Below, in pieces: positions 292 through 20,000 of a DNA stretch of 20,000 nucleotides (position 1 is its first letter; the number at the start of each line of letters is the position of its first letter). The translations under genes were made by a program, and so were the position numbers. The stretch is from an uncultured virus (IMG/VR IMGVR_UViG_3300049581_000068) (Duplodnaviria; Heunggongvirae; Uroviricota; Caudoviricetes): IMG/VR virus record IMGVR_UViG_3300049581_000068. One strand, 5' to 3'. Under the pieces are notes generated by a model. It did no database searches and was not told the DNA's origin. It saw only the letters and a program-made list of their open reading frames with translations.

Positions 292-403
292 GGTGGATGC
301 GCCCTTTCGGTGTGTAGTGGACTAAACGACACATCCGCTACGACCGACTCCGTTCTCCGGAGCGACCCGCATCTAAGGGCAGCCGGTAATGCTGGCAGGT
401 AGT

Positions 404-2262: not shown

Positions 2263-2320
2263 CAGACCGCCCTATGCATATAGCGCCTGGTCATCATCCG
2301 GCCATTATCACACAAAACGA

Positions 2321-7491: not shown

Positions 7492-7786
7492 TGGCGGCCT
7501 CATCCTTGGGGCGCCACGGCTTGTCGGCCTCGTACAGCGCGACACCGCGCATGCGGTTACGCGGCCTGGTCTGGCCATTGGCGCGGCGCGATCGCCGGTT
7601 GTAGGCCGGTCGCAGGACGTCGGCGGATTCGACGCCGTGACGCAGTGTGCGGCCGTCCGGATTGAACGGGCTCTGCCAGTTCGGCGTGGCCGCGTGGAAC
7701 GGCGTGAGAATCAGCCCGTTCTTGTCGGGTATCGGGTCGTCGACGAGTTTGGTCAGTGTCTTGCGCTCGTCGTGGAATTTGGTCAT
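7484..7786 (-). CDS. Hypothetical basic protein (100 aa), first gene of the leftward operon
   Basis: RBS GAAGGGA and a promoter directly upstream. Confidence 0.75.
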   Translation of the reverse strand: MTKFHDERKTLTKLVDDPIPDKNGLILTPFHAATPNWQSPFNPDGRTLRHGVESADVLRPAYNRRSRRANGQTRPRNRMRGVALYEADKPWRPKDEAANA

Positions 7787-7872
7787 GGGATCCCTTCACT
7801 TTCGGTCGGCTGTCGAAAACACGATCCGTTTACCCTAGCCTGATGAAATTCCAATGTCAAGCATTATGACAT
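7787..7872 (-). promoter_or_regulatory. SigA-like leftward promoter with palindromic operator and ACCGAAAGTGAAGGGA leader motif
   Basis: Minus strand TTGACA (7855-7860), 17 bp, TAGGGT (7832-7837). Inverted repeat ATGTCA-N7-TGACAT at 7854-7872. Confidence 0.8.
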
Positions 7873-7880
7873 CTGATTCA

Positions 7881-7919
7881 TTGACAATGCAAATGACATT
7901 GTGTCATCCTTGGGACACT
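7881..7919 (+). promoter_or_regulatory. Putative rightward promoter for the WhiB-like gene
   Basis: TTGACA 7881-7886, 18 bp, TGt-CATCCT (7905-7910). Degenerate site GACA-N7-TGAC at 7883-7897 and inverted repeat ATGACA-TTG-TGTCAT at 7893-7907. Confidence 0.5.
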
Positions 7920-8294
7920 ATGCCCAGGCCGCCGAACCTCAGCATCTCAGCATGGTTTTCCCAGAGCGGCTTGCGTAGTCATCCGTGGATGCAGAAAGGG
8001 TTGTGCCGCAACCACCCCGAGCTCCCATGGACAGCCGACAGCATGCCTGCGGGGCACGATCTCGACGCCATGAGCGACATCTGCCGCGGTTGCCCGGTAC
8101 GCGCGAGCTGCGCTGCCTACGCCGTACACAGCAACAACGATCGCGGCATCGACGGCGGCTTCTACGCCGGCTACTGGCTGCCGTGGCTCACCTACCAAGA
8201 CTCGGCCGAGAACAAGCGCATTCGACAACGCTCGAAGATGTGGTTGCGCGTGTTCCTCGGAGAACGAAAACCGCCACTCCTGCGCTACAACTGA
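7920..8294 (+). CDS. whiB: WhiB-family (Wbl) Fe-S transcriptional regulator
   Basis: W-x3-GLC...ICRGCPVRASC four-Cys pattern and GFYAG turn (variant of G[IV]WGG), with a basic C-terminus. Start set at ATG 7920 because 7854-7919 is promoter DNA. Confidence 0.85.
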   Translation: MPRPPNLSISAWFSQSGLRSHPWMQKGLCRNHPELPWTADSMPAGHDLDAMSDICRGCPVRASCAAYAVHSNNDRGIDGGFYAGYWLPWLTYQDSAENKRIRQRSKMWLRVFLGERKPPLLRYN

Positions 8295-8305
8295 GGGCCG
8301 TCACC

Positions 8306-8518
8306 ATGCACCTGCCGCATCGACACAGAGTCGAGCCGCAGCCTGCACCAGAGGTCATCGTCGAATACACCGTCCGCAACAGCGCCGGGGAATTGCTGGA
8401 ATGGCCGTGCGGCTGCCCACGCAGGTTCTATGCCTACGAGAGCGCCCTGCAGACCTGCCGAAGCGGTGATGTGGTGCTACGCCGCGTAGTACAGGCGACT
8501 CCCTGGTCACTGGCGTGA
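8306..8518 (+). CDS. Hypothetical protein (70 aa, WPCGCP motif)
   Basis: ATG 8306 after GAGGG; follows whiB on the same strand. Confidence 0.65.
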   Translation: MHLPHRHRVEPQPAPEVIVEYTVRNSAGELLEWPCGCPRRFYAYESALQTCRSGDVVLRRVVQATPWSLA

Positions 8519-8623
8519 AAACGCGCCGATTCGCGCAGCAGCGGCACTCCCCGAGCGAAAGTAAGGGGTAACCCTCGGTTCGCCGCGCTTCGACCCAAAG
8601 AAACAGCCAAGGAAAACGGTCGT

Positions 8624-8660
8624 TTGACGCGAATCAGCGCGTATGACAAAGATACATGGC
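8624..8660 (+). promoter_or_regulatory. Putative promoter for a leaderless transcript of the secreted peptidase
   Basis: TTGACG 8624-8629, 18 bp, AAAGAT 8648-8653, then ATG 7 nt later with no SD. Degenerate operator ATCA-N7-TGAC at 8633-8647 lies in the spacer. Confidence 0.45.
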
Positions 8661-9125
8661 ATGAAACGCAACGTCAATCGTATTGTCGCACTTATCCTCA
8701 CGGGATGGTTTCTCGCCGCTTCACTGATCACAGCGCAACGCGCGCAAGCACTTCCACTCGATCAAGTCGTCAACACGATTCGCGACTCCGGAGGACGCTA
8801 CGTGCGCGCCGGTGCCGCCCTCACGGGTGCTGATTGCAGCGGAATCGTCTCGGTCGCACAATCGCTGGCGATGGGAGTGCCGATTCATCGCTTCGGAAAC
8901 ACAACCTCACTGCTGAATGGTCAATGGCCGCACATGATCCGCGGCGCGGTGCCTGAAGATCGATTCGTCGTCGGCAGCAGCTCGACGCACATGGTTGTCC
9001 GTATCGACGGTGTCGGAATCGAAGCAACCACGTCCGGCCGACCCTATGTCATCGGCCCCGGCGCCAAGTCACCGTGGTCGATGCCGACGCAATGGCATCT
9101 CGATCCGAAAGTCATTCGGACATAA
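8661..9125 (+). CDS. Secreted NlpC/P60-like (papain-fold) cysteine peptidase, putative peptidoglycan endopeptidase
   Basis: Sec-type signal peptide (MKR..hydrophobic..AQA|LP), Y-x2-AG...GADCSG catalytic Cys motif, and THMVV...IEA His motif. Confidence 0.75.
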   Translation: MKRNVNRIVALILTGWFLAASLITAQRAQALPLDQVVNTIRDSGGRYVRAGAALTGADCSGIVSVAQSLAMGVPIHRFGNTTSLLNGQWPHMIRGAVPEDRFVVGSSSTHMVVRIDGVGIEATTSGRPYVIGPGAKSPWSMPTQWHLDPKVIRT

Positions 9126-9417
9126 GCCGGTCTGAGTATTCGCTTGCGCCACCGGGCGCAGGCTCTAAGACATGTCGATCTACGGCTTTCGCCAAACACC
9201 GCTCAGCAGGCCAATCGGGGGGAAACTCAAACGGGCCGTTAGTCGAGCACTGCGGCTCTTCCCAGCATCCGTTCCGGCACATCGCGCCGTCGATCCTGCC
9301 TGCCCAGTAGTAGGGACATGTCAGCATGGCGATGGTGTAGCCGCGGTCGTCGGCGGATTCAGCTTCATCGTTGAGCGGGTTTCCCCACTCGTCCCAAACA
9401 GGCCGACCAGCGGTCAT
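9112..9417 (-). CDS. Hypothetical Cys-rich acidic protein (101 aa)
   Basis: ATGA overlap; CPY...MCRNGCWEEPQC. Confidence 0.75.
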   Translation of the reverse strand: MTAGRPVWDEWGNPLNDEAESADDRGYTIAMLTCPYYWAGRIDGAMCRNGCWEEPQCSTNGPFEFPPDWPAERCLAKAVDRHVLEPAPGGASEYSDRLMSE

Positions 9418-9743
9418 TCTGAATGCAGCGTCTTGTTGGTGAGCGTTTCAACGTTCCCGGTGAGGGTGAGGATTCCATTGCCGCGGGTGTCGAGAATGGT
9501 GGGCTGCAATACCCATTCCTCGGAGCCGTAGTCGCACGACGGGCAGCCCGGCGTCAACCGGCGAACGAAGACGTGCCCTTCGCTACACCACCATCGACTC
9601 GTCAATGTGTTGATCTCGTGGGAATGCAGATTGCCGTCTTCGTCGTAGTAGTGCTGTGATCCGCCCATCGCGGTCGACACTGACGTGCCGTCCGTCTGGA
9701 AACGACTACGCAGGCTGAGCTTCACGCATTCGGGACACTTCAT
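9414..9743 (-). CDS. Hypothetical Zn-ribbon-like protein (109 aa)
   Basis: CPEC, CSEGH and CPSC motifs; ATGA overlaps on both sides. Confidence 0.8.
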   Translation of the reverse strand: MKCPECVKLSLRSRFQTDGTSVSTAMGGSQHYYDEDGNLHSHEINTLTSRWWCSEGHVFVRRLTPGCPSCDYGSEEWVLQPTILDTRGNGILTLTGNVETLTNKTLHSE

Positions 9744-10117
9744 CGGTATTCGATCTCCACGCGAACGCCGCTGGCGCGCAAGTGATCCAACACGCGGAAC
9801 GTCAACGCCCGATGCCAGCTCGCCGGCAGGTTGCGCGCGTTGACGAATTCCTCGTCGGTGCGATACGTGCGCAACGTGACCGGATCGTCGTCACCGATCT
9901 TGTCGATGATCTTGCGCATCTCTTCGACAGTCATGGCCTCGAGACGGTCCAGTTCCTCTGGCACTTGAGGATTGATGATCTCGCCGTCGAACCAGCGCAC
10001 AACGGTTCGCATCGTGACGCCGATACGGTCAGCGAACCACGACGGCGGCAGGCCCAACCCGCCCAGTCGAACCTTCAAAGCAGCGCCGGTAAGTGCCGGC
10101 TTCACCGGTGTGTCCAT
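9740..10117 (-). CDS. Aca2/YdiL (DUF1870)-like helix-turn-helix regulator
   Basis: N-terminal XRE-type HTH (LTGAALK..LGL..WFADRIGVTMRTVVRWFDG) followed by a LRTYRTDEEF...PASWHRA C-terminal domain. Size and layout match Aca2/DUF1870 proteins as I recall them; not searched. Confidence 0.75.
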   Translation of the reverse strand: MDTPVKPALTGAALKVRLGGLGLPPSWFADRIGVTMRTVVRWFDGEIINPQVPEELDRLEAMTVEEMRKIIDKIGDDDPVTLRTYRTDEEFVNARNLPASWHRALTFRVLDHLRASGVRVEIEYR

Positions 10118-10299
10118 CGGAACAGCCTATCGTCGTAGGGATCAAGAGCTTCGCCGCCATCGTCGGGATCGTCGAGACGGTTCAACCCGCGGACGTAATC
10201 GCGGTCTATCGATGCCCGAAGCAACTGCTGAGGCATCAGCGCAAAAGTTGCTTCCAGCAGCCCGCCGATCGCCCGCGCCGCGCGTTCAACGCAGTTCAC
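10102..10299 (-). CDS. Small hypothetical protein (65 aa)
   Basis: GTG start overlapping the upstream stop (GTGA); fills the gap. Confidence 0.6.
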   Translation of the reverse strand: MNCVERAARAIGGLLEATFALMPQQLLRASIDRDYVRGLNRLDDPDDGGEALDPYDDRLFRWTHR

Positions 10300-10535
10300 T
10301 TGTGGTCCCACGCCCCGAGCCAGCCTTTGAACTGCTTGGTGGTGCAATCGACCGATGGTCCCGCGTCGTCGACGACGTAGTGGTAAGAGGCTTCGGGAGG
10401 GAAGGCATGCTTCGGAACGCCATAGGTGCGACCATCGACGAATCCGTGACCGGGCACGAACATGCGGTCTAAATCGAGCTCACCCGGCGCTTTAGGGTCA
10501 GTCCAATTATCAAGTTCGACAGCGAGATCAATCAT
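10296..10535 (-). CDS. Hypothetical protein (79 aa)
   Basis: RBS GGAG; fits the operon tiling. Confidence 0.75.
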   Translation of the reverse strand: MIDLAVELDNWTDPKAPGELDLDRMFVPGHGFVDGRTYGVPKHAFPPEASYHYVVDDAGPSVDCTTKQFKGWLGAWDHK

Positions 10536-10692
10536 CGAGACTCCGCAGAGCTAGCCACTCGTCGACGGTGAAAGCGCGAGTTTCGCCGACTTCATCCCAT
10601 CCGCGAGTGCGGCGCCACTCGGCGTAGAGCAGGAACGCGCACATACCGAACAGCGCGGCGATCAAAAGGATGACGACTGCGGTGTTGATCAT
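10528..10692 (-). CDS. Small single-pass membrane protein (54 aa, MINTAVVILLIAALFGMCAFLLYAEWRR...)
   Basis: Manual translation; strong RBS GGGAAGGGA; N-terminal hydrophobic helix. Confidence 0.75.
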   Translation of the reverse strand: MINTAVVILLIAALFGMCAFLLYAEWRRTRGWDEVGETRAFTVDEWLALRSLDD

Positions 10693-10749
10693 GTGCTAAT
10701 TCCCTTCCCTCGGTGATGACATTACCATTGACTCAGTGCACGTCGTCAA
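10693..10749 (-). promoter_or_regulatory. Putative promoter of the operon carrying the Aca2-like gene, with a degenerate operator over the -10
   Basis: Minus strand TTGACG (10744-10749), 19 bp, extended TGg-TAATGT (10719-10724). GACA-TTACCAT-TGAC at 10718-10732. Confidence 0.55.
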
Positions 10750-10972
10750 GACTGCGTAGCGGACAGCAGTCGACGTCGTGCAAATAGACGTCGCCGGTCA
10801 AGGTGTAGTTGCAATACTTGATCGGAACGCTTTTCAGTCCGTCGCGGCTCTCGGGATGCTGCTCCCATTGCCGCAGCACCGCGCGATAGGCGTCCATGTT
10901 GAGTACATGGATCTTCTTTTCGTCGCTCTTGATTCTCACGTTGTCGAGAAAGCCACCGACACAGCGGGTCAT
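10733..10972 (-). CDS. Hypothetical protein (79 aa, MTRCVGGFLD...)
   Basis: ATGA overlap with the upstream small ORF; GAGG RBS. Confidence 0.7.
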   Translation of the reverse strand: MTRCVGGFLDNVRIKSDEKKIHVLNMDAYRAVLRQWEQHPESRDGLKSVPIKYCNYTLTGDVYLHDVDCCPLRSLDDVH

Positions 10973-11121
10973 GCCTCGGCCACCCACTGGACGTTGTGAT
11001 CGATGCCGTATAGACGTTGTGCGACAAGCTCGCGGGCTGCATCCTCATCCAAGGCGAGAACACTGACGTCCAAATCCTGGTCGGTTACGTGACACCTGAT
11101 GTTGTAATACCTCAACGCCAT
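10969..11121 (-). CDS. Small hypothetical protein (50 aa, MALRYYNIRCHVTDQDLDVSVLALDEDAARE...)
   Basis: Manual translation; RBS GAGGGG; ATGA overlap downstream. Confidence 0.7.
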   Translation of the reverse strand: MALRYYNIRCHVTDQDLDVSVLALDEDAARELVAQRLYGIDHNVQWVAEA

Positions 11122-11366
11122 TGCGGCCCCTCACCTTCTTTCATCGCTCCGACGAGCACCCATCCCTCCCGCTCGAATAGTCCGCGGCGCAGATCGCCCA
11201 GACAGTTGAACGGCGACCACGTGATCGACGCAGCCACATCGTCGACCGTCCACGCGCCGTAGCGCATGCGGTGCTCGCCGCGGTGCCGACTGAACAGGAA
11301 CAGGTTGACGAACCACCACCCGATACGTCGGGTGGTGGTCGTCTCCCTGTAGCGATGAGCAGCCAT
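11112..11366 (-). CDS. Hypothetical protein (84 aa)
   Basis: TGATG overlap with the upstream gene. Confidence 0.7.
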   Translation of the reverse strand: MAAHRYRETTTTRRIGWWFVNLFLFSRHRGEHRMRYGAWTVDDVAASITWSPFNCLGDLRRGLFEREGWVLVGAMKEGEGPQWR

Positions 11367-11740
11367 CAGCGCTTGGTGGCGCGCTTCCGAGCGGGGGCGC
11401 GCTTGCGCGGCGCAGCCTTTTTCGCCGGCCCGCGCTTCAGTGCGCTCGCCAGTTCCTCAACGTTGTCGGGGCCGGGGATGACGTTCTCGCTGGCTTCGCG
11501 CTCCCACCGCTCGAGAACTTCCGCGGCTGCCAGCGCCACCGATGGGTCGGGAACGCTCGCCAGCGCCGAGTAGATGTTTGCCTTTTCCAGTTGCTCACCG
11601 ATGATGATCATCTGCTGCTCACGCTGAGCGTCGGTGACGTCGCCCGTGCGCCCGGCCAGCGTGATCTCTTCGCGAAGCTGAGTCGCTGAATTGAGGCACT
11701 GCCACGCAGCCACCCACGCACTCACTCGTCCATCTGCCAT
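11366..11740 (-). CDS. Hypothetical protein with a Lys/Arg/Ala/Pro-rich histone-like tail (124 aa)
   Basis: RBS AGGA in an A/C-rich leader; C-terminus KRGPAKKAAPRKRAPARKRATKR. Confidence 0.8.
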   Translation of the reverse strand: MADGRVSAWVAAWQCLNSATQLREEITLAGRTGDVTDAQREQQMIIIGEQLEKANIYSALASVPDPSVALAAAEVLERWEREASENVIPGPDNVEELASALKRGPAKKAAPRKRAPARKRATKR

Positions 11741-11772
11741 GTTGTTTTTTCCTATCTTGTTGGGGTTGTTAC

Positions 11773-12009
11773 TTATTCGGGGGGTCGCGGCTCGGTCATT
11801 TTTTTATTGGTGACCGTTTGCGCTTGCGCGTTCTGGGGGAAACGCACGGCGAGCATATCGCTGAAGCGTTGCCCGACGCGCTCGACCATCCGCTGCAACG
11901 CGGCTGGCGCCTCGCTGGGGGTGAAGCCCTCCACGGATTCGAGGTTGTCGCAAATCACCACCCCCTGATACTTGATCTGGATGGCGACTTGGATGCTGTC
12001 GGCGTTCAT
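11773..12009 (-). CDS. Hypothetical protein (78 aa, MNADSIQV...)
   Basis: RBS GAAGGA; ATGA overlap. Confidence 0.75.
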   Translation of the reverse strand: MNADSIQVAIQIKYQGVVICDNLESVEGFTPSEAPAALQRMVERVGQRFSDMLAVRFPQNAQAQTVTNKKMTEPRPPE

Positions 12010-12260
12010 TGATCCTTCCTTCGTGCGTTTTTCTCCAACCAGAACCCTTCCATCCTGATCGCGCCACAAGCGCAGCGTTCAAGAAAATTGAAATACCCGT
12101 AGACGCCGCGGGTTTGCGTACGGCAAAGATGCAAGCGCGGCGGCAGTGGTGCATCATGCCAAGGCACGCTGCCGCGGTGTTGCAGCTCGGTCGAGCCATC
12201 TTCGGATTGATAGCCGACAATGAATTCCGCCGCTGGCGGTCTACCCAATAGCCGTAGCAT
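12006..12260 (-). CDS. Hypothetical protein (84 aa; WHDAPLPPRLHLC...ERCACGA)
   Basis: TGATG overlap with the upstream stop; His/Cys motif. Confidence 0.75.
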   Translation of the reverse strand: MLRLLGRPPAAEFIVGYQSEDGSTELQHRGSVPWHDAPLPPRLHLCRTQTRGVYGYFNFLERCACGAIRMEGFWLEKNARRKDQ

Positions 12261-12844
12261 CAGAAGCCTCGCCCGAGCACGTCGGCAATGCGCTTGCTGA
12301 CGAGATTGGTTGCGGCCTCTTTGATTTGCTTGGCCGCCTCGGACAGGCGTTTGGACATTTCCTTGTCGATCACCGAATTGGCTGTCTGTTCGGCACGCCA
12401 CTGTAGATACGTCTGGCTGGTCCCGTAGCCGTCGCGCGCGCGCTTGCCATCCCGGTCGACCTTTTGGTCCAACCGGTCGGTCATAGCCTTGATCATGGCT
12501 TCGCGCATGGACATTTCCGGAGACTTCGGCTCACCGTAGGTCGACGTCAGCCGAACCGGTTGCGCCATCACTTCATCGATGAGCGCATCGACTTTTTCTA
12601 GCGCCCCAGCGCGCACCGCGGACACAACCTCCGCACGTACATCATCCTGAATGGCGGTAGCCAGCTTCGCCGCTACCAAATCGACGATGCGGCCGTTGCC
12701 ACCGGGTGCGTAGTCGAGCTCGGGGTCGTCGTGACTACCGGCGTTGTATGCGGTCCAGCCCAATTCCGATCTGAGAAGCTGATCGACGTCGATGGAGATG
12801 GTGATGGGCACATGCGCTTCCACCTGCTCGGATTCAGTCATCAC
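12260..12844 (-). CDS. Hypothetical phage protein (194 aa, helical)
   Basis: Long ORF tiling the operon; GTGA overlap. Confidence 0.85.
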   Translation of the reverse strand: MMTESEQVEAHVPITISIDVDQLLRSELGWTAYNAGSHDDPELDYAPGGNGRIVDLVAAKLATAIQDDVRAEVVSAVRAGALEKVDALIDEVMAQPVRLTSTYGEPKSPEMSMREAMIKAMTDRLDQKVDRDGKRARDGYGTSQTYLQWRAEQTANSVIDKEMSKRLSEAAKQIKEAATNLVSKRIADVLGRGF

Positions 12845-13224
12845 TCAATCCCGTATTCGCGCTTTTTGTCGATTCCGTATTCGATGATCGTGCTGACCAT
12901 CTTGTTGCGGAATTCGTTGTCCACGTAGGGGTCCGGTAGGCCGGCGAGCATGGTGCCGATGGCGCCGACGATTTTTTGGTAGTGCTCGGATTCGCGGACC
13001 AGTTGCTCGACGGTTTCGTTGGCGATGCGTCGCACCGCCTCGTCGAACGCCACTTGCAGCGGCGTGCGTCTGTCGTAGCTGTAGCGGTCACCGGCCGGCT
13101 TGGTCATAAGGAACTGCAGCGCCGCGGTGATGATCGTCTCGCGTGACTCTGCCGACAACTTTTCCACGATGGCGTGGCCCAGCACGGCAGCCAGCTCACC
13201 CTCGGGAATCTTGATCTCTGTCAA
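12841..13224 (-). CDS. Hypothetical phage protein (127 aa, helical)
   Basis: TTG start after GAGAGGA RBS. Confidence 0.8.
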   Translation of the reverse strand: MTEIKIPEGELAAVLGHAIVEKLSAESRETIITAALQFLMTKPAGDRYSYDRRTPLQVAFDEAVRRIANETVEQLVRESEHYQKIVGAIGTMLAGLPDPYVDNEFRNKMVSTIIEYGIDKKREYGIE

Positions 13225-13236
13225 CGGTTTTTCCTC

Positions 13237-13461
13237 TCAGTAGAAGATGGTTATTTTTTCCAGCGGAACCTGGACGGTGGGGTTTCGCAAGGCGATCAGG
13301 GTTGTTTGCGCATAGTTCGCGACCTTCATCATCCACGCGCCCAGGATCAGTGCAGCGCGGTTGTCGAGATGCTCGCCGTTGGCGACCATCCACCGGGCAA
13401 CCTTGTCCATCTGCATGATGATGCCGATGGCCTGAACGTAGTACGCCGCAATGGGATTCAC
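13237..13461 (-). CDS. Hypothetical protein (74 aa)
   Basis: GTGA overlap with the upstream gene. Confidence 0.7.
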   Translation of the reverse strand: MNPIAAYYVQAIGIIMQMDKVARWMVANGEHLDNRAALILGAWMMKVANYAQTTLIALRNPTVQVPLEKITIFY

Positions 13462-13733
13462 CTGTGGCTCAGTCCATGATTGACAAGCCGATGCACGGCT
13501 TCGGTCAATGAGCAGTCGAACGCCTTGGCGTAGTCGCGGATCTCGGCCTCACGCGCCCAACCGGCAATGAGTTTGTCGGCGGGATCGTAAACCTCAAGAT
13601 GGTCGACGTCGAATGCGATTGGCTCCGGCGTCTCCGGTAGGTCGATGTCGACGGTGGCGAACAGCGCCCGAACCGTGCCAATGCGACCCCGATGCCCTCC
13701 GGCTTTCACTCGTACCTGCGTGCCCTTTTTCAT
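13458..13733 (-). CDS. Hypothetical protein with an N-terminal KOW/SH3-like motif (91 aa)
   Basis: MKKGTQVRVKAGGHRGRIGTV matches the KOW pattern; TGATG overlap; GAGG RBS. Confidence 0.7.
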   Translation of the reverse strand: MKKGTQVRVKAGGHRGRIGTVRALFATVDIDLPETPEPIAFDVDHLEVYDPADKLIAGWAREAEIRDYAKAFDCSLTEAVHRLVNHGLSHR

Positions 13734-14044
13734 CAGATCGCCTCGTTCAGTTGCGGCCGGTTGGCGTCGACCCACGCCTTGAATACCGGCAGATAGTCCG
13801 GACACATGACGACGATGCCGCGGATCATGGAGTCGGCTATGTACTCGACGTCGACGCCTTGGCGTATCGCTTCGCGCGCGATCATGTCCAACGACCAGCC
13901 AGCGTCGAGCTCGCGGCAGACGATGGCGGCATCGTGCATGGCGTCGAGCTCCGGTGAGGCATGTGCCTGCGGTGCGTGCGTCACCATGAACAGTGTTGTC
14001 AAGATGATTGCCGCGTCGATCATGCGCCGTTGCCAGCGCATCAT
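13733..14044 (-). CDS. Secreted DUF732-like protein
   Basis: Signal peptide ending APQAHA|SP, with VC..LD.G ... MCP Cys pair typical of mycobacterial DUF732. Confidence 0.7.
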   Translation of the reverse strand: MMRWQRRMIDAAIILTTLFMVTHAPQAHASPELDAMHDAAIVCRELDAGWSLDMIAREAIRQGVDVEYIADSMIRGIVVMCPDYLPVFKAWVDANRPQLNEAI

Positions 14045-14358
14045 GCGACGCCATCCAGCCCGACGTCGATCAGCAGACGCCCGACAGCCGCGGAAAGTTC
14101 AGCAGCCTCGGCGGCGCCGGCCTCGGGAAAATCGTCAGGGTCGGCAGCCTGCTCATAAGCGACGTGCAGCGGCACCAATTCCTTGAGGCGCTCGTTGAGC
14201 GCGACGAGAAGATCGTCGGCCTTGCTGACCGTTTCGATATGCAGGTCTAGCACGTTGAACACGTCGGCCACCGACCCCGGCAGGCGCCGCTGCATGACGC
14301 CCAACAGCCTCGTACGGTGCTCGGTCCACGCATCGCGGGCTTTTTCCAAATCGGTCAT
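14041..14358 (-). CDS. Hypothetical protein (105 aa)
   Basis: RBS AAAGGA; ATGA overlaps. Confidence 0.8.
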   Translation of the reverse strand: MTDLEKARDAWTEHRTRLLGVMQRRLPGSVADVFNVLDLHIETVSKADDLLVALNERLKELVPLHVAYEQAADPDDFPEAGAAEAAELSAAVGRLLIDVGLDGVA

Positions 14359-14810
14359 ACCGTCATCCTTTCAGTATTGAGTGCGTCGGCCTGCTCTTTG
14401 GCGGCGCGCATCGATAGGTGGCTACTGACAACGTGATCGTGGTTGATGTCAGCAACAACGTAGCAAAGGTAATTCGACGTCGTGCCAGTGAATTTGAGCT
14501 CTATAGCCCGGTCGCGCATCATGGGACGGTAGTCGCGGAACTTTGGTTGAGCTTCACCGGCGCAGAGTTTGTCGCCACAATCGTGAATCAGTTTTGCGGC
14601 TTTTTCCCGTGCCGTAGCGAGATCGCGAGTGCCGAGTGATATGCCAAATGGCTTGGGCGGCACGTCTTCACGACGATGCAAACGCCATTCTGCGTTGACA
14701 GCGCCATATTCGCGACTTAGCCAGCCGAGAACACGCCCGTGCTGATCGATCGCTTTGGTAGTCTGCGTGTTCATTCGCAGACTTGTGCCGATGCGCGTCC
14801 AGCGGATCAT
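14355..14810 (-). CDS. Hypothetical protein (about 151 aa)
   Basis: ATG 14810 overlaps the upstream stop (ATGA). Confidence 0.7.
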   Translation of the reverse strand: MIRWTRIGTSLRMNTQTTKAIDQHGRVLGWLSREYGAVNAEWRLHRREDVPPKPFGISLGTRDLATAREKAAKLIHDCGDKLCAGEAQPKFRDYRPMMRDRAIELKFTGTTSNYLCYVVADINHDHVVSSHLSMRAAKEQADALNTERMTV

Positions 14811-14977
14811 CGCACAACCCCAATCGTCAATTGAGCTTCCAGATTGTCGATCTCGCACTGTTTTTCGGCGATCAGCGTGTCAACCTTGGCGCGGCGCTCG
14901 GCTTCCAACGCGATGCGCTGCTCTTGCTGCTGCCGCGCGGTCGCCAGCCGGCGCCGGATGAATAGTTGCTGATTCAT
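14807..14977 (-). CDS. Small coiled-coil protein (56 aa, MNQQLFIRRRLATARQQQEQR...)
   Basis: Manual translation; ATGA overlaps at both ends. Confidence 0.7.
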   Translation of the reverse strand: MNQQLFIRRRLATARQQQEQRIALEAERRAKVDTLIAEKQCEIDNLEAQLTIGVVR

Positions 14978-15114
14978 GCGCGATCACCAGGCGCGTCGAG
15001 ATGAACGCTGCACGGCCATTCAGGATGAACGTGCCATTGACCGGACAGCGAGCAGGACGTGGCCGGATCATCGGCGCAGGAGAACACGCACTCGCACTCG
15101 ACGACGGCGGTCAT
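14974..15114 (-). CDS. Small Cys/His-rich protein (46 aa, MTAVVECECVFSCADDPATSCSLSGQWHVHPEWPCSVH...)
   Basis: Manual translation; ATGA overlaps at both ends. Confidence 0.7.
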   Translation of the reverse strand: MTAVVECECVFSCADDPATSCSLSGQWHVHPEWPCSVHLDAPGDRA

Positions 15115-15410
15115 CGGCGTGCCTGCCGTTCGCACTTGCGCAGCAGTCGTAGCTTCTGCTCGGCGTCGAGCGCGTAGCGCAGCACGTCCGGTACTGCGCC
15201 GCCGATTTCATCGCGTGCGCGTTGGGCCTGAGCCTTGCCGTGCTGCTCGTCGGTCCACTCCGTCGAGCGCACTACCGCCATGATGACGTCCAGCGCGGCG
15301 TGCGTGGGCTGCAACCCGTTCTCGTCCATCAGTGCCACCGCGACGCGCTCGCGAATGTCCAGCTCTGCGAACGCGATGCGTGCGTTTTCGTCGTCGTGCC
15401 AGCCGCTCAT
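15111..15410 (-). CDS. Hypothetical protein (99 aa, MSGWHDDENAR...)
   Basis: ATGA overlap; RBS AAGGTGG. Confidence 0.75.
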   Translation of the reverse strand: MSGWHDDENARIAFAELDIRERVAVALMDENGLQPTHAALDVIMAVVRSTEWTDEQHGKAQAQRARDEIGGAVPDVLRYALDAEQKLRLLRKCERQARR

Positions 15411-15682
15411 GCGTTCACCACCTTCGCGGTCCAGTCGTCGGTATCCAAGTCGTCCATGTTCGGGTCGCCGGCATCGGCCACTAGCGCCTCGTAGACACTG
15501 TTGATCTGTTGCTCGTTGGCAATGTCGACAATCTTTTGCGCCAGCTCGGCATCGGAGAGATTGGCGACGGCCTCGGCGTTGAACAGGCCGGTGGACGTGA
15601 GCAACTGTGTGGCGTCCTCGCGCGTCCACTCGCTGACGAACGCCACCGTAGCGGTCTGCACGAAGCGAAGAACGGTGCTCAC
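15407..15682 (-). CDS. Acidic hypothetical protein (91 aa)
   Basis: GTGA overlap; RBS GAGGGG; strongly Asp/Glu-rich C-terminus. Confidence 0.75.
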   Translation of the reverse strand: MSTVLRFVQTATVAFVSEWTREDATQLLTSTGLFNAEAVANLSDAELAQKIVDIANEQQINSVYEALVADAGDPNMDDLDTDDWTAKVVNA

Positions 15683-15999
15683 AACAACCCCTCGACGCAC
15701 TCGACGGCGGCGCGCTTGGTGCGGAAGCGCAGAATGCCGACGCTCTCGGCCCACAGGTAACTGACGTCGGCGTCGGCCACGCCGAACACGGCGATCTTGT
15801 ACTCGCGTGCCGAATCGTCGTAGTTGCGTGTCGATTCGACCCACAGGCGCCGATTGTCGCCGGCGTAGTAGACGCGAGTCTCGACGCGCGCCGCGAACGC
15901 CTTGATCGTGTCCGGCGAGAACCAGAAACGGCCAGCGGCGGCGTTGGCTTTTTTGATTTCCGCGACGTTGGTGAACCGCGGCTTGGTATCGGTGGTCAT
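15679..15999 (-). CDS. Hypothetical phage protein (106 aa; EIKKAN...G.FWFSPDT..F motif)
   Basis: First gene after the promoter module; RBS AGGGGA; start ATG 15999. Confidence 0.85.
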   Translation of the reverse strand: MTTDTKPRFTNVAEIKKANAAAGRFWFSPDTIKAFAARVETRVYYAGDNRRLWVESTRNYDDSAREYKIAVFGVADADVSYLWAESVGILRFRTKRAAVECVEGLL

Positions 16000-16072
16000 G
16001 CAATCCCCTACTTTCGGTTGGTTGGCTGTCCCAATGTATGTCATGGCTGGCTACCTGTCAATAGTTATGACG
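16000..16072 (-). promoter_or_regulatory. Operator/promoter/leader module copy
   Basis: GTCAATAGTTATGAC 16057-16071. TTGACA, 17 bp, TACATT (16033-16038). Leader CAACCGAAAGTAGGGGAT. Confidence 0.85.
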
Positions 16073-16261
16073 CTCGCCCGGTAGCACCCCTGCCGGCGCG
16101 TTGTAGCGCGCCTCAAATTCGTCGTAGACGTCGGGAAACGCCGCGCGCAGGCGAGCCATGTTGGCGGTGTCGGCCTTGCGCATCGCAGCCATGATGAGCG
16201 CGTAGAACGGCGGATCGCTGTCGCTGATCTCCCGGCTTGCCCGGTAGTCGAACAGGCTCAC
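16058..16261 (-). CDS. Hypothetical protein (67 aa; FYALIMAAMRKADTANMARLRAAFP)
   Basis: GTGA overlap; the stop codon lies inside the downstream operator. Confidence 0.8.
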   Translation of the reverse strand: MSLFDYRASREISDSDPPFYALIMAAMRKADTANMARLRAAFPDVYDEFEARYNAPAGVLPGERHNY

Positions 16262-16680
16262 GGGTTGATCGCCGTTTCTTCGCAGCCGTCGCACCAATCG
16301 CGTGAAGACAGGTACCCGACGTTTTCGTGGCAGTTCTGACACTCGCGCTGCTCGTCGTCGTCGGTTTCGCGCGGCACGACCGACTCGTCGCGCAAATCGA
16401 CCTCCCATGCTTCGCCGGTGTGGTCGTCGAACACGGTGAAGAACGTCATCTGCGCCGGACCGGGATGGTTGCCGGCGCGAGAGGCCATCGACCGGCCTTT
16501 TTTCGCGGCCTCTAGCACCGACGCGACGTCACCGACGCAGACCTCCCAACGCACCGTGAACATGCGCTCGCGCATTTTGCCGGCGTGCCACTCGTAGAAT
16601 CCCAGATCGGTGCGTCCGTTGGTCACCTCGGCAACCCATGCGGTACGTCGGTCTTCGTAGTGGTCCTTCATCGCGCTCAT
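16258..16680 (-). CDS. Hypothetical protein (140 aa) with C-terminal CxxC..CxxC
   Basis: ATGA overlap; GAGG RBS. Confidence 0.8.
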   Translation of the reverse strand: MSAMKDHYEDRRTAWVAEVTNGRTDLGFYEWHAGKMRERMFTVRWEVCVGDVASVLEAAKKGRSMASRAGNHPGPAQMTFFTVFDDHTGEAWEVDLRDESVVPRETDDDEQRECQNCHENVGYLSSRDWCDGCEETAINP

Positions 16681-16937
16681 GCGCGGAACCTCAGCACGTC
16701 CTCAATGGCGAAAACCATGTCGTCGATGCGGAACGTCTCGACGCGCTTGCGCGAGGTCGATGCATTGTCGTTGCGCGAGAGCACGCCGGTATAGGTGTGT
16801 CCACCGTACAGCGTGACTTCTGCCCTATCCCAAGGCTTTTCCTCGGTGATGTCGGCGATCACCTGCGCTAGCACGTTGCTAAACGTGCCAGTCCAGCCAC
16901 TTCCACTGCTGCGAAGTTCAATATCATATTCGTCCAT
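16677..16937 (-). CDS. Hypothetical protein (86 aa)
   Basis: First gene after the promoter module; RBS AGGGGA. Confidence 0.8.
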   Translation of the reverse strand: MDEYDIELRSSGSGWTGTFSNVLAQVIADITEEKPWDRAEVTLYGGHTYTGVLSRNDNASTSRKRVETFRIDDMVFAIEDVLRFRA

Positions 16938-17011
16938 ATCCCCTACTTTCGGTTGATTGTCTTGCGACGCTTATTGTTTCAGCTTCTCGACGGTATGTCA
17001 ATATCTATGAC
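16938..17011 (-). promoter_or_regulatory. Operator/promoter/leader module copy
   Basis: GTCAATATCTATGAC 16997-17011. TTGACA, 17 bp, TGa-AACAAT (16973-16978). Leader CAACCGAAAGTAGGGGAT. Confidence 0.85.
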
Positions 17012-17094
17012 TTAGGCTTTTTCTCCCGGCCCAGATACAGCAGCGCGAACCACACGCCGGCAGTCGGCAGGCCGATAACGAGGTAAGTCAGCAT
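17005..17094 (-). CDS. Tiny membrane peptide (29 aa, MLTYLVIGLPTAGVWFALLYLGREKKPKS)
   Basis: TGATG overlap, RBS AAGGGG, hydrophobic helix with a basic tail; stop inside the operator. Confidence 0.6.
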   Translation of the reverse strand: MLTYLVIGLPTAGVWFALLYLGREKKPKS

Positions 17095-17306
17095 CACCAC
17101 CCCCTTGCCGCGCGCATGTATTCGTCGTAATCGTGCTTGGCTTGCAGGTCGCACGCGCCGCAGAGCCAATCGTCCTCGGCGCCTTGGTAGATCAGATTCA
17201 TGGCGTGATCGACGTCGCCACACTCGCCACACTCGACCAGCATGAGTGAGGCAACCACCTCAGGGTCGAGCACGTCGAGCTCGGTAATCACGTCGGAGTC
17301 GCTCAT
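17094..17306 (-). CDS. Small acidic Zn-finger-like protein (70 aa; CGEC...CGAC)
   Basis: ATGA overlap; GGAG RBS. Confidence 0.75.
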   Translation of the reverse strand: MSDSDVITELDVLDPEVVASLMLVECGECGDVDHAMNLIYQGAEDDWLCGACDLQAKHDYDEYMRAARGW

Positions 17307-17662
17307 GCGTGTTGCTCCGCATACTCTCGCGCCTTGGCAATGTCGCGGCGCACGGCGTTTTTCACGGCTTCGGGCAGGCTTGACCACTTCGCATAGCGGT
17401 GCTTGTTGCGATAGCGGTACTGCGCAACCTCATGGGCTTGCAGCTCGCCGTGGTACGTGGCGCCGGCCTCTGTTGATGCCAAGTAGTTGAGCCACTTTTC
17501 GGCGCGCGACGAATCGGGATACTTGATCGTTTCCATGTTGGCGTAAATGATCGTGAAACGGTCGACCGTGCGCGGATTGTCGATGATGGCGAGAACCTCT
17601 CGCGGACAATCGCCGTCCAGCCAGCGCGCGCTACAGCGGCGCGGTGCGTAGTCGCGGCTCAT
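17303..17662 (-). CDS. Hypothetical phage protein (119 aa; IDN..TVDRFTIIY...W..LP..V motif)
   Basis: ATGA overlaps on both sides. Confidence 0.85.
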   Translation of the reverse strand: MSRDYAPRRCSARWLDGDCPREVLAIIDNPRTVDRFTIIYANMETIKYPDSSRAEKWLNYLASTEAGATYHGELQAHEVAQYRYRNKHRYAKWSSLPEAVKNAVRRDIAKAREYAEQHA

Positions 17663-17874
17663 GCCGTCACCGTTGTTTCTTCAACGATGCGGGGCGCGTA
17701 CGCGTTCTCGATGACGTTTTGCGCGAACGCTACTGCCTCGCTAGCGTCGGTGAACATGAGCATCACCTCGCCGTTCATCTGATCGTTGTTGAGTTTGACA
17801 CCCATCGAACCGCTGACATACTGCACTGCTTCGCGAACGATGGGACGATGGACATTCACTGTGACGATTTGCAT
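17659..17874 (-). CDS. Hypothetical protein (71 aa, MQIVTVNVH...)
   Basis: Leader CCAACGAGTAAGGGGAG directly upstream of ATG 17874. Confidence 0.8.
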   Translation of the reverse strand: MQIVTVNVHRPIVREAVQYVSGSMGVKLNNDQMNGEVMLMFTDASEAVAFAQNVIENAYAPRIVEETTVTA

Positions 17875-17884
17875 TTTTCTCCCC

Positions 17885-18190
17885 TTACTCGTTGGTGGTT
17901 GCTTCGGTCCATGCCGCCCAAGCGAATGAGCGGCCGGCTTCTGGCATGTATGTCGCGCGCCAAAACGCAAACTTGTCGGCAACTTCCTCCGAAACGCCTT
18001 GCGAGAGTGCATACTTGCGCACCGACGCAAAGGTCTGATCGTCGGTATCGACGACGGTATTTTTCTCGTCTGCGATGATCCGCAGCGACTCGGCAATGTC
18101 GACGAGCGCGGCGCCGATACCGTAGTTCTGCTCTACTGACAGCTCATCAACCCATCGTTTGAGAGTGTCGATGCTGAAGGTTCGGCTCAT
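17885..18190 (-). CDS. Hypothetical protein (101 aa)
   Basis: ATGA overlap; GGAG RBS. Confidence 0.8.
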   Translation of the reverse strand: MSRTFSIDTLKRWVDELSVEQNYGIGAALVDIAESLRIIADEKNTVVDTDDQTFASVRKYALSQGVSEEVADKFAFWRATYMPEAGRSFAWAAWTEATTNE

Positions 18191-18405
18191 GCGGAAAACT
18201 CCGCGATCTTTTCGTCTGGCGTGCCAGCGTAGCTACTGCCAGCGGTGCGGTAGACCGTGAACAAATCCTTGCCGTTCACGTGCGACACGCGCACGGTCAC
18301 ACCCGCGGTCCAGCCGTCGACGTGGGCCGCCATGCCGGACTGCTTGCTGCCCAGGCGCGACGCTTCGCCACGCTGACCGCGGATGATTGCTCGAAACTGT
18401 GCCAT
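18187..18405 (-). CDS. Hypothetical phage protein (72 aa; MAQFRAIIRGQRGEASRLG...GW..GV)
   Basis: First gene after the promoter module; RBS AAGGGGA. Confidence 0.85.
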   Translation of the reverse strand: MAQFRAIIRGQRGEASRLGSKQSGMAAHVDGWTAGVTVRVSHVNGKDLFTVYRTAGSSYAGTPDEKIAEFSA

Positions 18406-18484
18406 GTTATCCCCTTACTTCGGTTGTTTTTTGTTGTTGCCCTGAGTATTTCACGTTTTGCTTGGCTTGTCAATACCTATGACG
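18406..18484 (-). promoter_or_regulatory. Operator/promoter/leader module copy
   Basis: GTCAATACCTATGAC 18469-18483. TTGACA, 17 bp, TGa-AATACT (18445-18450). Leader CAACCGAAGTAAGGGGAT. Confidence 0.85.
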
Positions 18485-18580
18485 TGAGCCGGTTTCGGCG
18501 TGAGCCCAACAGAGCCGGCGTGTTGTCGTGCCATCACAAAGTTTTCGATCATCAATGGATAGCTGATATGGGGAGCTACC

Positions 18581-18760
18581 TCAGTCGCCTACATGTCGAC
18601 CACCTCCCCACATGGCCGCGAGTTTTTCGCCGGTCATCGCGGCATGCATGCGACGCACTTCCGGCGCTGCGGCATGGCACGCTAGGCAACGATTGCGCGG
18701 AAACAGTTCCAGTGGATCGACGTCGGCGCCGCAGTCGGCGCACCGTATCGGCGCGCTCAT
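18581..18760 (-). CDS. Small Zn-binding protein (59 aa; CADC...CLACH)
   Basis: TGATG overlap with the upstream stop. Confidence 0.75.
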   Translation of the reverse strand: MSAPIRCADCGADVDPLELFPRNRCLACHAAAPEVRRMHAAMTGEKLAAMWGGGRHVGD

Positions 18761-19362
18761 CAGATGAGTCCCACGATGCCGGCGCCTGCGAGGTTTGCTT
18801 TTTTCTGCCGTTCGGAGACGTCGTAAGCGATGGCGGCGCGCGCTTCGCTCATCACGTAGTCGCGCTCGCGGTCGAAACCGTAGTAACCCCAACAACTGCC
18901 GACGTCGCTACCGTCCGGCGCCGTCACCACGTAGCCGAACACGTCACCTTCGGCCCACGCGCGCCACGCTTCCAGACATACGCTCGTGGCTTTTTCGGGC
19001 TCTGTGAAATCGTCATCAACCCACGCGACGCCGGCGATACGGTCGAAACGGTCCGACGTCGGCGTGTCGGGACGGTAGTCGTCGGTCACCAGCGTGACGC
19101 CTTTTTTGCCCATCAGCGTGAGCCAGCGAACGATGGCGGCGCCGCTGCGATGTTCCCAGTCCCACATGTCGCGCGCGCGCAACACACCTTCCAAACCCGC
19201 GGGTATGTCGTCGCCTACGGATACGTCCATACAGCGACGGTCCCCGATCTTCAACATGGAAAACCCGTAGTTTTCCGGCTGGTCTGCGTATTCGTCTGCG
19301 ATGAATTGCACGACGTACTCACCGGCCGGCGTGTCGATTTTTTCGGAATGCAATTCGTACAT
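18760..19362 (-). CDS. Acidic hypothetical protein (200 aa; W..GDVFGYVV...SCWGYYG motif)
   Basis: First gene after the promoter module; RBS AAGGGGA. I recall this C-terminal motif from phage/plasmid hypothetical proteins. Confidence 0.88.
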   Translation of the reverse strand: MYELHSEKIDTPAGEYVVQFIADEYADQPENYGFSMLKIGDRRCMDVSVGDDIPAGLEGVLRARDMWDWEHRSGAAIVRWLTLMGKKGVTLVTDDYRPDTPTSDRFDRIAGVAWVDDDFTEPEKATSVCLEAWRAWAEGDVFGYVVTAPDGSDVGSCWGYYGFDRERDYVMSEARAAIAYDVSERQKKANLAGAGIVGLI

Positions 19363-19442
19363 TTTTCCCCTTACTGCGGTTTGTGTTGTGCTGCTTATTG
19401 TTTCACGCGTGATCGCGTTACGTCAATACCTATGACGTAACG
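19363..19442 (-). promoter_or_regulatory. Operator/promoter/leader module copy with an extended perfect palindrome
   Basis: CGTTACGTCA-ATACCTA-TGACGTAACG 19416-19442. TTGACG, 18 bp, TGa-AACAAT (19397-19402). Leader AAACCGCAGTAAGGGGAA. Confidence 0.85.
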
Positions 19443-19965: not shown

Positions 19966-20000
19966 GTGAGCGAAAAAGATTCCCCACTCATCCCACGTTG

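Follow-up and report, generated by a model that had tools for sequence, protein, structure and literature searches.

Some phage proteins act at many sites in their own genome. L5 gp71, through its stoperators, and phiC31 c, through its inverted repeats, are each a single protein with numerous genomic sites, some of which lie over an early promoter. Both are immunity repressors of temperate phages, and the L5 sites are asymmetric 13-mers located mostly inside transcribed regions. The Aca2/YdiL fold has so far been studied as an anti-CRISPR autoregulator of one operon in proteobacterial phages; Aca2 also acts at the RNA level. As described in the available parts of PMC6765145 and PMC8633003, the Aca2 inverted repeat consists of 4-bp GTTC half-sites with the core TTCG-N6-CGAA. 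Aca2 represses a strong promoter through inverted repeats over the -35 and -10 elements (PMC6765145, same part), and residues R30, Y34, and R39 of the protein from Pectobacterium phage ZF40 contact the DNA (PMC8633003, same part).

The window considered here, a 20,000-nucleotide stretch of DNA from an uncultured virus, contains a dyad, GTCA-N7-TGAC, on the -35 box of five predicted promoters. Unlike the L5 and phiC31 sites, these dyads are symmetric, lie on -35 boxes only, and belong to a phage lineage that looks lytic. They differ from the Aca2 site, GTTC-N8-GAAC, in both half-site (GTCA) and spacing (N7). Furthermore, Aca2 serves one autoregulated operon, whereas the five promoters head separate operons in a window with no known acr gene, and the host is an actinobacterium.

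The window comprises an early region together with the terminase, portal, and protease genes of a phage distantly related to the Cluster O mycobacteriophages. Protein identity to Corndog is 52% for TerL, 57% for the portal, 46-47% for the gp76 homologue, and 44% for the WhiB-like protein; megablast of the window against Cluster O mycobacteriophages (Corndog) found no DNA similarity. Neither an integrase nor a repressor was seen in the window. The nearest isolated relatives, in Cluster O, are reported not to be temperate in the available part of PMC4351075, and this phage is probably a lytic Cluster-O-like actinophage. In Cluster O, many small genes displace the terminase from the genome end and there are several strong SigA-like promoters (PMC4351075, same part); the window likewise has its terminase away from the genome end and several strong SigA-like promoters.

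The dyad and its promoters

All five exact copies of the dyad in the original prediction were found, and each has the proposed layout: one half-site is the -35 box, followed by 17-18 nt to a -10 element, a leader motif, and a start codon. The features are as follows.

19422..19436: dyad 1, GTCAATACCTATGAC, with 8-bp symmetric arms TTACGTCA...TGACGTAA
19397..19426, minus strand: predicted promoter 1, TTGACG, 18 nt, TGn-AACAAT; Shine-Dalgarno sequence GCAGTAAGGGGAAAA, then ATG at 19362
18760..19362, minus strand: first gene of promoter 1, 200 aa, phrog_6186, no assigned function
18469..18483: dyad 2, GTCAATACCTATGAC
18445..18473, minus strand: predicted promoter 2, TTGACA, 17 nt, TGn-AATACT; ATG at 18405
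18187-18405, minus strand: gene of promoter 2, 72 aa, phrog_5927
16997..17011: dyad 3, GTCAATATCTATGAC
16973..17001, minus strand: predicted promoter 3, TTGACA, 17 nt, TGn-AACAAT; ATG at 16937
16677-16937, minus strand: gene of promoter 3, 86 aa, homologue of Corndog gp77
16057..16071: dyad 4, GTCAATAGTTATGAC
16033..16061, minus strand: predicted promoter 4, TTGACA, 17 nt, TACATT; ATG at 15999
15679-15999, minus strand: gene of promoter 4, 106 aa, DUF7447
7856..7870: dyad 5, GTCAAGCATTATGAC, with 6-bp arms ATGTCA...TGACAT, in the divergent control region beside the WhiB-like gene
7832..7860, minus strand: predicted promoter 5, TTGACA, 17 nt, TAGGGT; ATG at 7786
7484-7786, minus strand: gene of promoter 5; the operon continues to the terminase
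10718..10732: 1-mismatch copy over the TGg-TAATGT extended -10 preceding the P0002 operon; not beyond chance
7883..7897: 1-mismatch copy that overlaps TTGACA in the WhiB promoter (plus strand); alone not beyond chance
8633..8647: 1-mismatch copy in the -35/-10 spacer of a leaderless promoter on the plus strand (TTGACG, 18 nt, AAAGAT, 7 nt, ATG); alone not beyond chance
9740..10117, minus strand: candidate repressor P0002, 125 aa, Aca2/YdiL-type fold, homologue of Corndog gp76
7920..8294, plus strand: WhiB-like regulator P0003, opposite in direction to all other genes; rival candidate

The five promoters are predicted to be of the σ70/SigA type, taken as TTGACA, 16-18 nt, and TAnnnT upstream of a gene start. 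Their -10 elements (TAGGGT, TACATT, AACAAT, AATACT, and AACAAT) are preceded in three cases by TGn and followed in every case by an GAAAGTAGGGGAT-like Shine-Dalgarno sequence and an ATG. Of the 11 promoter-like matches in a consensus scan, four are these promoters, with scores of 9-10 of 12; the promoter at 7860 (TTGACA-17-TAGGGT) falls outside the scan's rule of four matches in six for the -10. No RNA run was found to contain the sequence. Behind the 16057 promoter, the gene starts at 15999 rather than at 16044, as had been proposed.

The exact dyad is present 5 times in the window versus 0.34 expected, a count reached by none of 200 dinucleotide-preserving shuffles of the window. The enrichment is limited to the 7-nt spacer: when GTCA-Nx-TGAC was counted in the window for x = 2 to 12, every spacing other than N7 gave only 0 to 2 copies. 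Read on the minus strand, each copy is GTCATA-N4-TTGAC(A/G), and GTCA lies 7 nt upstream of 5 of the 41 TTGAC sequences in the window, whereas none of the 170 in five unrelated actinophage loci has it there. Since the arms reach 8 bp at the 19422 site and 6 bp at the 7856 site, and extend to GTCAA/TTGAC at two sites in G002, a 20-kb relative, the symmetry is real and goes beyond a -35 box plus a 4-mer.

With one mismatch allowed, the window holds 20 matches versus 9.27 +/- 3.18 expected, the imperfect ones numbering 15 versus about 9. The degenerate copies proposed at 7883, 8633, and 10718 do exist as 1-mismatch matches, but they are placed differently relative to the -35 and -10 elements and so are inseparable from chance. 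The suggestion of up to eight promoters is thus reduced to five, the number of sites that exceed chance.

Relatives and the P0002 family

In G002, where the P0002 homologue is 60% identical, all three dyads lie on a -35 box, and one exact promoter dyad heads the operon that includes the homologue. Corndog, whose homologue is 47% identical, has the same dyad in 6 copies versus about 0.7 expected. Two of these are on the -35 box of strong SigA-like promoters, one (TGTCAC-CATGA-GTGACA) is centered on the gp76 start codon, and the site at 4977 is identical to the 17-mer of dyad 5 at 14 of 17 positions. The available part of PMC4351075 neither describes the GTCA-N7-TGAC dyad nor assigns a binder to gp76. 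Together, these results indicate that the dyad on the -35 box is a real, conserved regulatory design.

The best argument that the P0002 family may read this site comes from the homologues' own genes, an observation new to this analysis. In 5 of 13 lineages, the promoter or start codon of the homologue itself bears a dyad with at most one mismatch, whereas about 0.03 per gene start is expected from the density in those loci. The family is thereby linked to the site, although shared descent, and the coding of Met-Ser-Asp by part of the dyad, leave the five lineages less than fully independent. One of the five is Corndog, with the gp76 start just described. In L122, L130, and L132 the dyad is centered on the start codon (ATG) of a leaderless mRNA, and in L134 it lies directly behind the -10, with 13 of 15 bases equal to the 16997 site of the window. 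Against the link, promoter-borne dyads were not found in the sequence examined for L122, L130/131, and L135/136, all of which have a homologue. In L127, which has the same VTMRT helix, a different palindrome, TGTTCGGTTTCCGAACA, stands before the gene, where the dyad occurs only at 2 mismatches. P0002's own gene in the window lacks an exact dyad; the 1-mismatch copy over its putative -10 may be a weak autoregulatory site.

The AlphaFold2 model of P0002 (pLDDT 92.6) has the two-domain Aca2/YdiL fold, an N-terminal helix-turn-helix and a C-terminal α/β dimerization domain. The first nine Foldseek matches are Aca2 (7vjo, 7ezy, 7vjp, 7vjq, 7b5j) and SO3848 and the tenth is YdiL 1s4k (E 5e-5 to 1e-3, TM 0.62-0.72, full length), which bears out the Aca2-like assignment of the 9740-10117 product. 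Like those proteins, P0002 is predicted to form a symmetric dimer. The homodimer score is 0.87 versus 0.00 for the best control, with contacts agreeing between runs to at least 88% and pLDDT of at least 90. Of homodimers with a solved structure, 20 of 30 reach the mark that it passes, as does 1 of 23 monomers. This pass may stem from likeness to the solved Aca2 dimers.

Similarity to Aca2 is weak at the sequence level (E 1.3). P0002 scores 13.2 bits with Pfam Aca2_YdiL (PF08965; E 0.1), below the gathering cut-off of 23.8. Of 59 family members, 6 match that model at E values no higher than 1 (best 0.0024), and 27 match YdaS. Given this score and the lack of a known acr gene, the "Aca" or anti-CRISPR label is not supported. 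In the weak HMMER alignment, R30 and W35 of ZF40 Aca2 pair with R37 and W42 and so appear to be kept, while two of the three key contact residues appear changed (Y34 to R41, R39 to E46). Within the P0002 family, RTxxRW in the recognition helix is conserved in 13 of 13 lineages. No genes neighboring P0002 matched a named family.

Proposed mechanism and its rivals

We consider the chances about even that the five dyads are operators for P0002 and serve early-promoter repression or feedback in this probably lytic Cluster-O-like phage. The (T)GTCA-N7-TGAC(A) dyads would be bound by the phage's own 125-residue helix-turn-helix protein, made from the same early region. Because one arm of the dyad is the -35 hexamer, a bound dimer would exclude σ region 4 and shut the promoter. 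As P0002 accumulated, the five early operons would be turned down together, resulting in negative feedback or early shut-off.

The dyads could instead be operators of another phage regulator whose gene lies in the roughly 30 kb outside the covered sequence; it might control middle genes or be a repressor of the immunity type. Multi-operator phage repressors such as L5 gp71 and phiC31 c are well known, and the sequence covered is the window plus 24 kb of G001 (the latter compared with four Corndog regulators only), or about 44 kb of a genome of about 74 kb. This explanation is unlikely, however, as it leaves the own-start dyads in 5 of 13 lineages unexplained, and neither an integrase nor a repressor turned up in the window. 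An immunity repressor encoded outside the window, formerly the main alternative, looks less likely since the Cluster O relatives are reported not to be temperate (PMC4351075, available part) and a search of 185,579 bacterial genomes turned up no close member of the P0002 family.

A host CRP/FNR factor of the Cmr type, which would link early transcription of the phage to the cAMP or redox state of its host, is improbable. Cmr (Rv1675c) of TB-complex mycobacteria recognizes TGTCA-N6-(C/T)GACA, in which G2, T3, A14, and C15 (the critical GT and AC) are essential (PMC4705688, available part), and its half-sites are identical to those of the phage 17-mer TGTCA-N7-TGACA. However, the Cmr site is 16 bp, whereas the phage site is 17 bp throughout: GTCA-N6-TGAC is present in 1, 0, and 0 copies versus 5, 3, and 6 for N7 in the window, G002, and Corndog, respectively, and every conserved phage site is N7. 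Nor would a host site be expected to follow the start codon of one phage gene family.

There is similarly little to recommend a regulator-free origin, in which the GTCATA arm is a strength element or a promoter module copied within the genome. One 17-mer is indeed common to promoters 1 and 2, and promoter 1 is 75% identical to promoter 3 over 36 nt, as some copying of modules would produce, but the five regions cannot be aligned outside the dyad, -10, and Shine-Dalgarno sequence, the dyad is kept with different spacer letters in phages with protein identities of only 40-60%, and the upstream arm is absent from TTGAC in the five other actinophage loci.

Least probable is docking of the WhiB-like protein, on σA region 4, at the upstream arm to activate or retarget the promoters: its gene is divergent beside dyad 5 and in the same place in G002 and Corndog (gp26), in G002 its leaderless promoter has the other arm of the dyad as -35 box, and Wbl proteins (WhiB7) touch DNA just upstream of the -35 box, but consensus TTGACA and good -10 boxes make an activator unneeded, twofold symmetry with arms of up to 8 bp is unexpected for a σ-tethered monomer, the dyad is absent from the Corndog gp26/gp27 intergenic region, and the own-start dyads of the helix-turn-helix family are unexplained.

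Implications for Cluster-O-like phages

Operator function for P0002 could be part of a wider role, although this is rather doubtful: the Aca2-fold family (Corndog gp76, P0002) may govern early transcription generally in lytic actinophages of the Cluster O type, reading the 17-bp frame TGTY-N9-RACA, with TGTTCGG-N3-CCGAACA as a second target at the DNA or RNA level. In such a scheme, the window site would have spread among five operons, each time onto the -35 box. To our knowledge, the Cluster O motif TGTTCGG-N3-CCGAACA, with more than 30 copies, has lacked an explanation since 2015. It has the GTTC half-site in common with Aca2 and the same frame as the N7 dyad. The core of the 17-bp repeat TGTTCGGNNNCCGAACA, TTCGG-N3-CCGAA, is present in 0 copies in the window versus 31 (23 + 8) in 67.9 kb of Corndog.

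If P0002 acts at the dyads as proposed, the Aca2/YdiL fold would also be a multi-operon switch for early genes in lytic actinophages. Cluster O phages, whose promoters and repeats lacked a described regulator, would gain a candidate binder and a set of targets, and mycobacterial genetics would gain a compact, strong, repressible promoter-operator unit of about 45 bp.

Dyads on the -35 boxes of five promoters

The window contains five exact copies of the dyad GTCA-N7-TGAC, at 7856, 16057, 16997, 18469 and 19422, where 0.34 would be expected; the five exact sites named in the original prediction are all present. None of 200 dinucleotide-preserving shuffles of the window reached five, and when the spacer is varied from 2 to 12 nt, N7 gives 5 copies and each other spacer 0 to 2. 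Nearly all genes of the window are on the minus strand, and read on that strand every copy takes the form GTCATA-N4-TTGAC(A/G); thus, the -35 hexamer is itself one arm of the dyad. The -10-like hexamers (TAGGGT, TACATT, AACAAT, AATACT and AACAAT) follow 17-18 nt on, three with an extended TGn, and after these come a GAAAGTAGGGGAT-like element and an ATG. This element, presumably an extended Shine-Dalgarno sequence judging from the mycobacterial 16S 3' end, had been described as a conserved leader motif. It is indeed present at all five promoters, but a gene start at 17874, internal to an operon-like run, has it upstream as well, so it is not specific to them.

A consensus promoter scan places four of the five dyad promoters among its 11 promoter-like matches; the 7860 site is missed on the -10 rule only. 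The gene of the 16057 promoter starts at 15999 rather than at the longest-ORF start, 16044. Longer arms are found at two sites: ATGTCA/TGACAT at 7856 and TTACGTCA/TGACGTAA at 19422. With one mismatch allowed, the window gives 20 matches versus 9.27 +/- 3.18 expected, and its imperfect matches number 15 versus about 9. The three degenerate copies that had brought the predicted set to eight sites are 1-mismatch matches of this kind, placed otherwise relative to -35 and -10, which leaves a count of five.

Several further features lie near these promoters. The 19422 dyad is inside a palindrome with a 10-bp stem, followed by a plus-strand T-run (19416-19442); the scan labels it terminator-like, and no plus-strand gene leads into it. 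The 190-290 nt upstream of three promoters (16072-16257, 17012-17302 and 18484-18759) contain no ORF with high third-position G+C, and part of the first, 16121-16255, weakly matches phrog_15317 in a frame that overlaps. The window gave no match in Rfam or tRNA scans. In the leader of the 7856 promoter (7801-7825), TTTCG-N9-CGAAA overlaps the Shine-Dalgarno sequence, and the 20-kb relative contig G002 has TTTCGG-ACAG-CCGAAA in a leader-like place (L121:3184); these inverted repeats may form a hairpin that masks the ribosome-binding site.

Genome context and conservation in related phages

Followed along the minus strand from 20000 down to 1, the window begins with about 12 kb of small genes. 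Past its sole plus-strand cassette (7920-9125) come further small genes and then the large terminase, portal and protease.

Genes of the plus-strand cassette
7920-8294, plus strand, WhiB-like gene
8306-8518, plus strand, 70-aa ORF
8661-9125, plus strand, secreted protein (signal peptide, DCSG motif, weak NlpC/P60 match at E 0.22)

The NlpC/P60-like gene is apparently read from a leaderless promoter (TTGACG, 18 nt, AAAGAT, 7 nt, then ATG at 8643 or 8661). The idea that 8643-9125 encodes an immunity repressor from a leaderless mRNA was rejected, because the product has a signal peptide and weakly matches NlpC/P60 instead of showing a DNA-binding fold. The WhiB-like gene has a perfect everted palindrome, ATGACA-TTG-TGTCAT (7893-7907), between its -35 and its start, and five TGACA/TGTCA half-sites, dyads included, fall within 55 bp (7855-7906).

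TerL and portal are 52% and 57% identical to those of Corndog and other Cluster O phages. In the Cluster O genomes, as described, the terminase is some 14 kb in from the genome end, a WhiB-like gene of opposite direction lies some 2 kb ahead of the terminase, and the predicted strong SigA-like promoters number eight or nine (PMC4351075). The window shares the displaced terminase, the oppositely directed WhiB-like gene and the strong SigA-like promoters. Megablast of 7000-20000 against isolated phages gave no match, and blastn against them only four short matches, with no DNA-level similarity. Scans for close relatives with P0002 (the candidate repressor), TerL and a 200-aa gene returned none or same-phage fragments only, and neither the window nor G001 or G002 yielded a homologue of Corndog gp53 or gp90.

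The sequence comes from rhizosphere metagenomes (24 runs listed, none RNA). Contigs of four rhizosphere DNA runs represent the same strain and differ from it at a single letter, 19920, with the dyads unchanged; population variation is therefore uninformative on the dyads. G001, a record of the same phage (100% identity over 1-6291), extends 24 kb into structural genes. Its two dyad matches are both in coding DNA without promoter features, and thus, within the 44 kb examined, promoter-borne dyads are limited to the early region.

G002 is syntenic with the window, its proteins are 37-62% identical, and all three of its dyads lie on a -35 box. Corndog has six dyads in the 67.9 kb examined, versus about 0.7 expected.

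Dyads in G002 and Corndog
G002, on the -35 box heading the operon with the P0002 homologue
G002, divergent WhiB control region, both arms being the TTGAC of back-to-back promoters
G002, before a leaderless promoter that adjoins DNA aligning with the region preceding the window's NlpC/P60-like gene
Corndog, 4977, rightward promoter, 17-mer TGTCAAGCCTATTGACA matching the window's 7856 site at 14/17 positions
Corndog, on the leftward promoter before gp96
Corndog, centred on the gp76 start codon
Corndog, three dyads in coding DNA

Among Corndog's five strongest SigA-like promoters in the scan, two carry an exact dyad and one a 1-mismatch copy. GTCA stands 7 nt upstream of TTGAC in 5 of 41 cases in the window versus 0 of 170 in Bipper and four other loci with P0002-family homologues (L122, L130, L135 and L137). 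The arms are constant while the spacer letters vary among phages, a pattern better explained by selection on the dyad than by copying of a promoter module. An IMG/VR scan with GTCATANNTATTGACA returned at least 119 single-match contigs and no multi-match locus, and with 14 specified bases it is uninformative. Within G002 (about 8184-10718), the TerL homologue is in two pieces about 800 nt apart, matching overlapping query residues 132-511 and 26-229; this split suggests an insertion (intein or homing element) or a partial duplication.

The P0002 family and its own promoters

P0002, a helix-turn-helix protein of 125 residues (9740-10117, minus strand), has 94 metagenomic relatives and is 46-47% identical to Corndog gp76. 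Its AlphaFold2 model, from a 59-sequence alignment, has a pLDDT of 92.6. The ten best Foldseek matches of this model are phage ZF40 Aca2, SO3848 and YdiL, full length at TM 0.62-0.72, so the fold had been called correctly. In the Aca2 structure paper, as far as its comparison extends, these are the sole proteins sharing both domains (PMC8434428). Sequence likeness is weak (phmmer against Aca2, E 1.3; Pfam Aca2_YdiL, 13.2 bits, below the cut-off of 23.8). By its modelled structure, P0002 belongs to the Aca2/YdiL fold family. The label "Aca" is not supported, with the Pfam threshold missed and no acr gene known here.

A homodimer of P0002 is predicted with a score of 0.87, whereas the best of three controls scores 0.00; between runs, 88% or more of the contacts agree, with pLDDT of at least 90. 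Among 30 solved homodimers, 20 reach this mark, as does 1 of 23 monomers, and the pass may stem from likeness to the solved Aca2 dimer. A weak HMMER alignment pairs Aca2 R30, Y34, W35 and R39 with P0002 R37, R41, W42 and E46. RTxxRW in the recognition helix is kept in 13/13 lineages, and the residue preceding its Arg is M, S, T, A or E. A distant homologue, Bipper gp48 (L153 19860-21749), has 173 residues with an N-terminal zinc-ribbon-like extension and is annotated as an antitoxin; a 399-aa gene follows and an integrase adjoins. It may represent a different use of the fold.

Homologue starts were compared in 13 lineages after near-identical loci were merged; L133 and L137 lack a start, and L138 and L139 were examined separately. 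In five of the 13, the homologue's own promoter or start bears the dyad, either exact or with one mismatch.

Dyads on the homologues' own starts
Corndog, TGTCAC-CATGA-GTGACA, ATG-centred, 6 nt after TAAGCT
L122, GTCTGTATGAGTGAC, ATG-centred, after TGaTAGCAT
L130/131, GTCTCTATGAGTGAC, ATG-centred, after TATGCT
L132, TTCAGCATGATTGAC, ATG-centred, after TGaTACAAT
L134/135/136, ATGTCCCTATCTATGACAT, immediately after TAAGAT

All but the last have a leaderless arrangement, and 13/15 positions of the L134 site agree with the site at 16997 in the window. These loci contain 103 such matches in 150,792 bases, a density at which about 0.03 is expected per gene start. The lineages are related by descent, and ATGAGTGAC doubles as Met-Ser-Asp codons. 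The upstream arm, however, is non-coding, and in all three Met-Ser-Asp-starting lineages Ser is AGT, a codon seldom used for Ser where G+C content is high. For a helix-turn-helix gene, a site on its own transcription start is the classical signature of autoregulation.

Other observations count against P0002 as the binder. Its own operon in the window has only a 1-mismatch dyad. L127, L138 and L139 share the VTMRT helix with the window, but what precedes their gene is the Cluster O repeat TGTTCGGTTTCCGAACA and only a 2-mismatch dyad (12-13/15 letters of the 16997 site). The available DNA of L122, L130/131 and L135/136 has no promoter-borne dyads. An argument against P0002 from its invariant helix and the absence of the motif in distant loci was withdrawn because of the Corndog promoter sites, the own-start dyads and the variable residue before the conserved Arg.

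Candidate binders and known circuits

A host factor of the Cmr type is a real rival to P0002: Cmr of the TB complex binds TGTCA-N6-YGACA, the same half-sites one base closer (PMC4705688), although all conserved phage sites are N7 and N6 is unenriched. A regulator encoded in the remaining 30 kb of the phage genome may be the binder instead. The WhiB-like protein, whose gene lies beside a dyad in the window, G002 and Corndog, could dock with sigma on the upstream side of the -35 box. Against this reading, the promoters are consensus-like as they stand, the site has twofold symmetry, and the Corndog WhiB intergenic region lacks a dyad. An immunity repressor seems less likely, despite the distant, longer P0002 homologue in Bipper, a temperate phage, since Cluster O phages are described as having no integrase or stable lysogens (PMC4351075) and a family-alignment scan of 185,579 bacterial species, one genome each, found no close P0002-family member.

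The 17-bp Cluster O repeat TGTTCGGNNNCCGAACA, or GTTC-N7-GAAC, has the GTTC half-site of Aca2 and the N7 frame of the window's dyad.

Copies of the Cluster O repeat
L127:1484
L128:214
L138:808
L139:1402
Corndog (L001/L150)

In L127, L138 and L139, a copy stands 27 nt upstream of the gp76-family gene, and L130 has a hybrid, TGTCCGGTTTCCGGACA, at about 9948, 53 nt before its homologue. gp76 is a candidate binder of the repeat; that its family reads this repeat as well as the dyad would be the most far-reaching interpretation. The Cluster O paper, in the portion bearing on gp76, does no more than list it among three possible DNA-binding proteins (PMC4351075). Literature searches found no paper linking mycobacteriophages with Aca2, giving Corndog RNA-seq or naming GTCA-N7-TGAC.

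Aca2 is described as repressing its own strong promoter through TTCG-N6-CGAA (half-site GTTC) over the -35 and -10 (PMC6765145, PMC8633003). The geometry fits: half-sites are 4 bp in both, and the centre-to-centre distance is 11 bp here versus 12 in Aca2. The same site on the homologues' own starts and on other promoters is as expected if an autoregulator gained a regulon; a P0002-family autoregulator would have acquired five other promoters in the window, three in G002 and two in Corndog. Such a circuit would resemble both the Aca-type negative feedback on strong promoters and the multi-operator phage repressors of L5 and phiC31.
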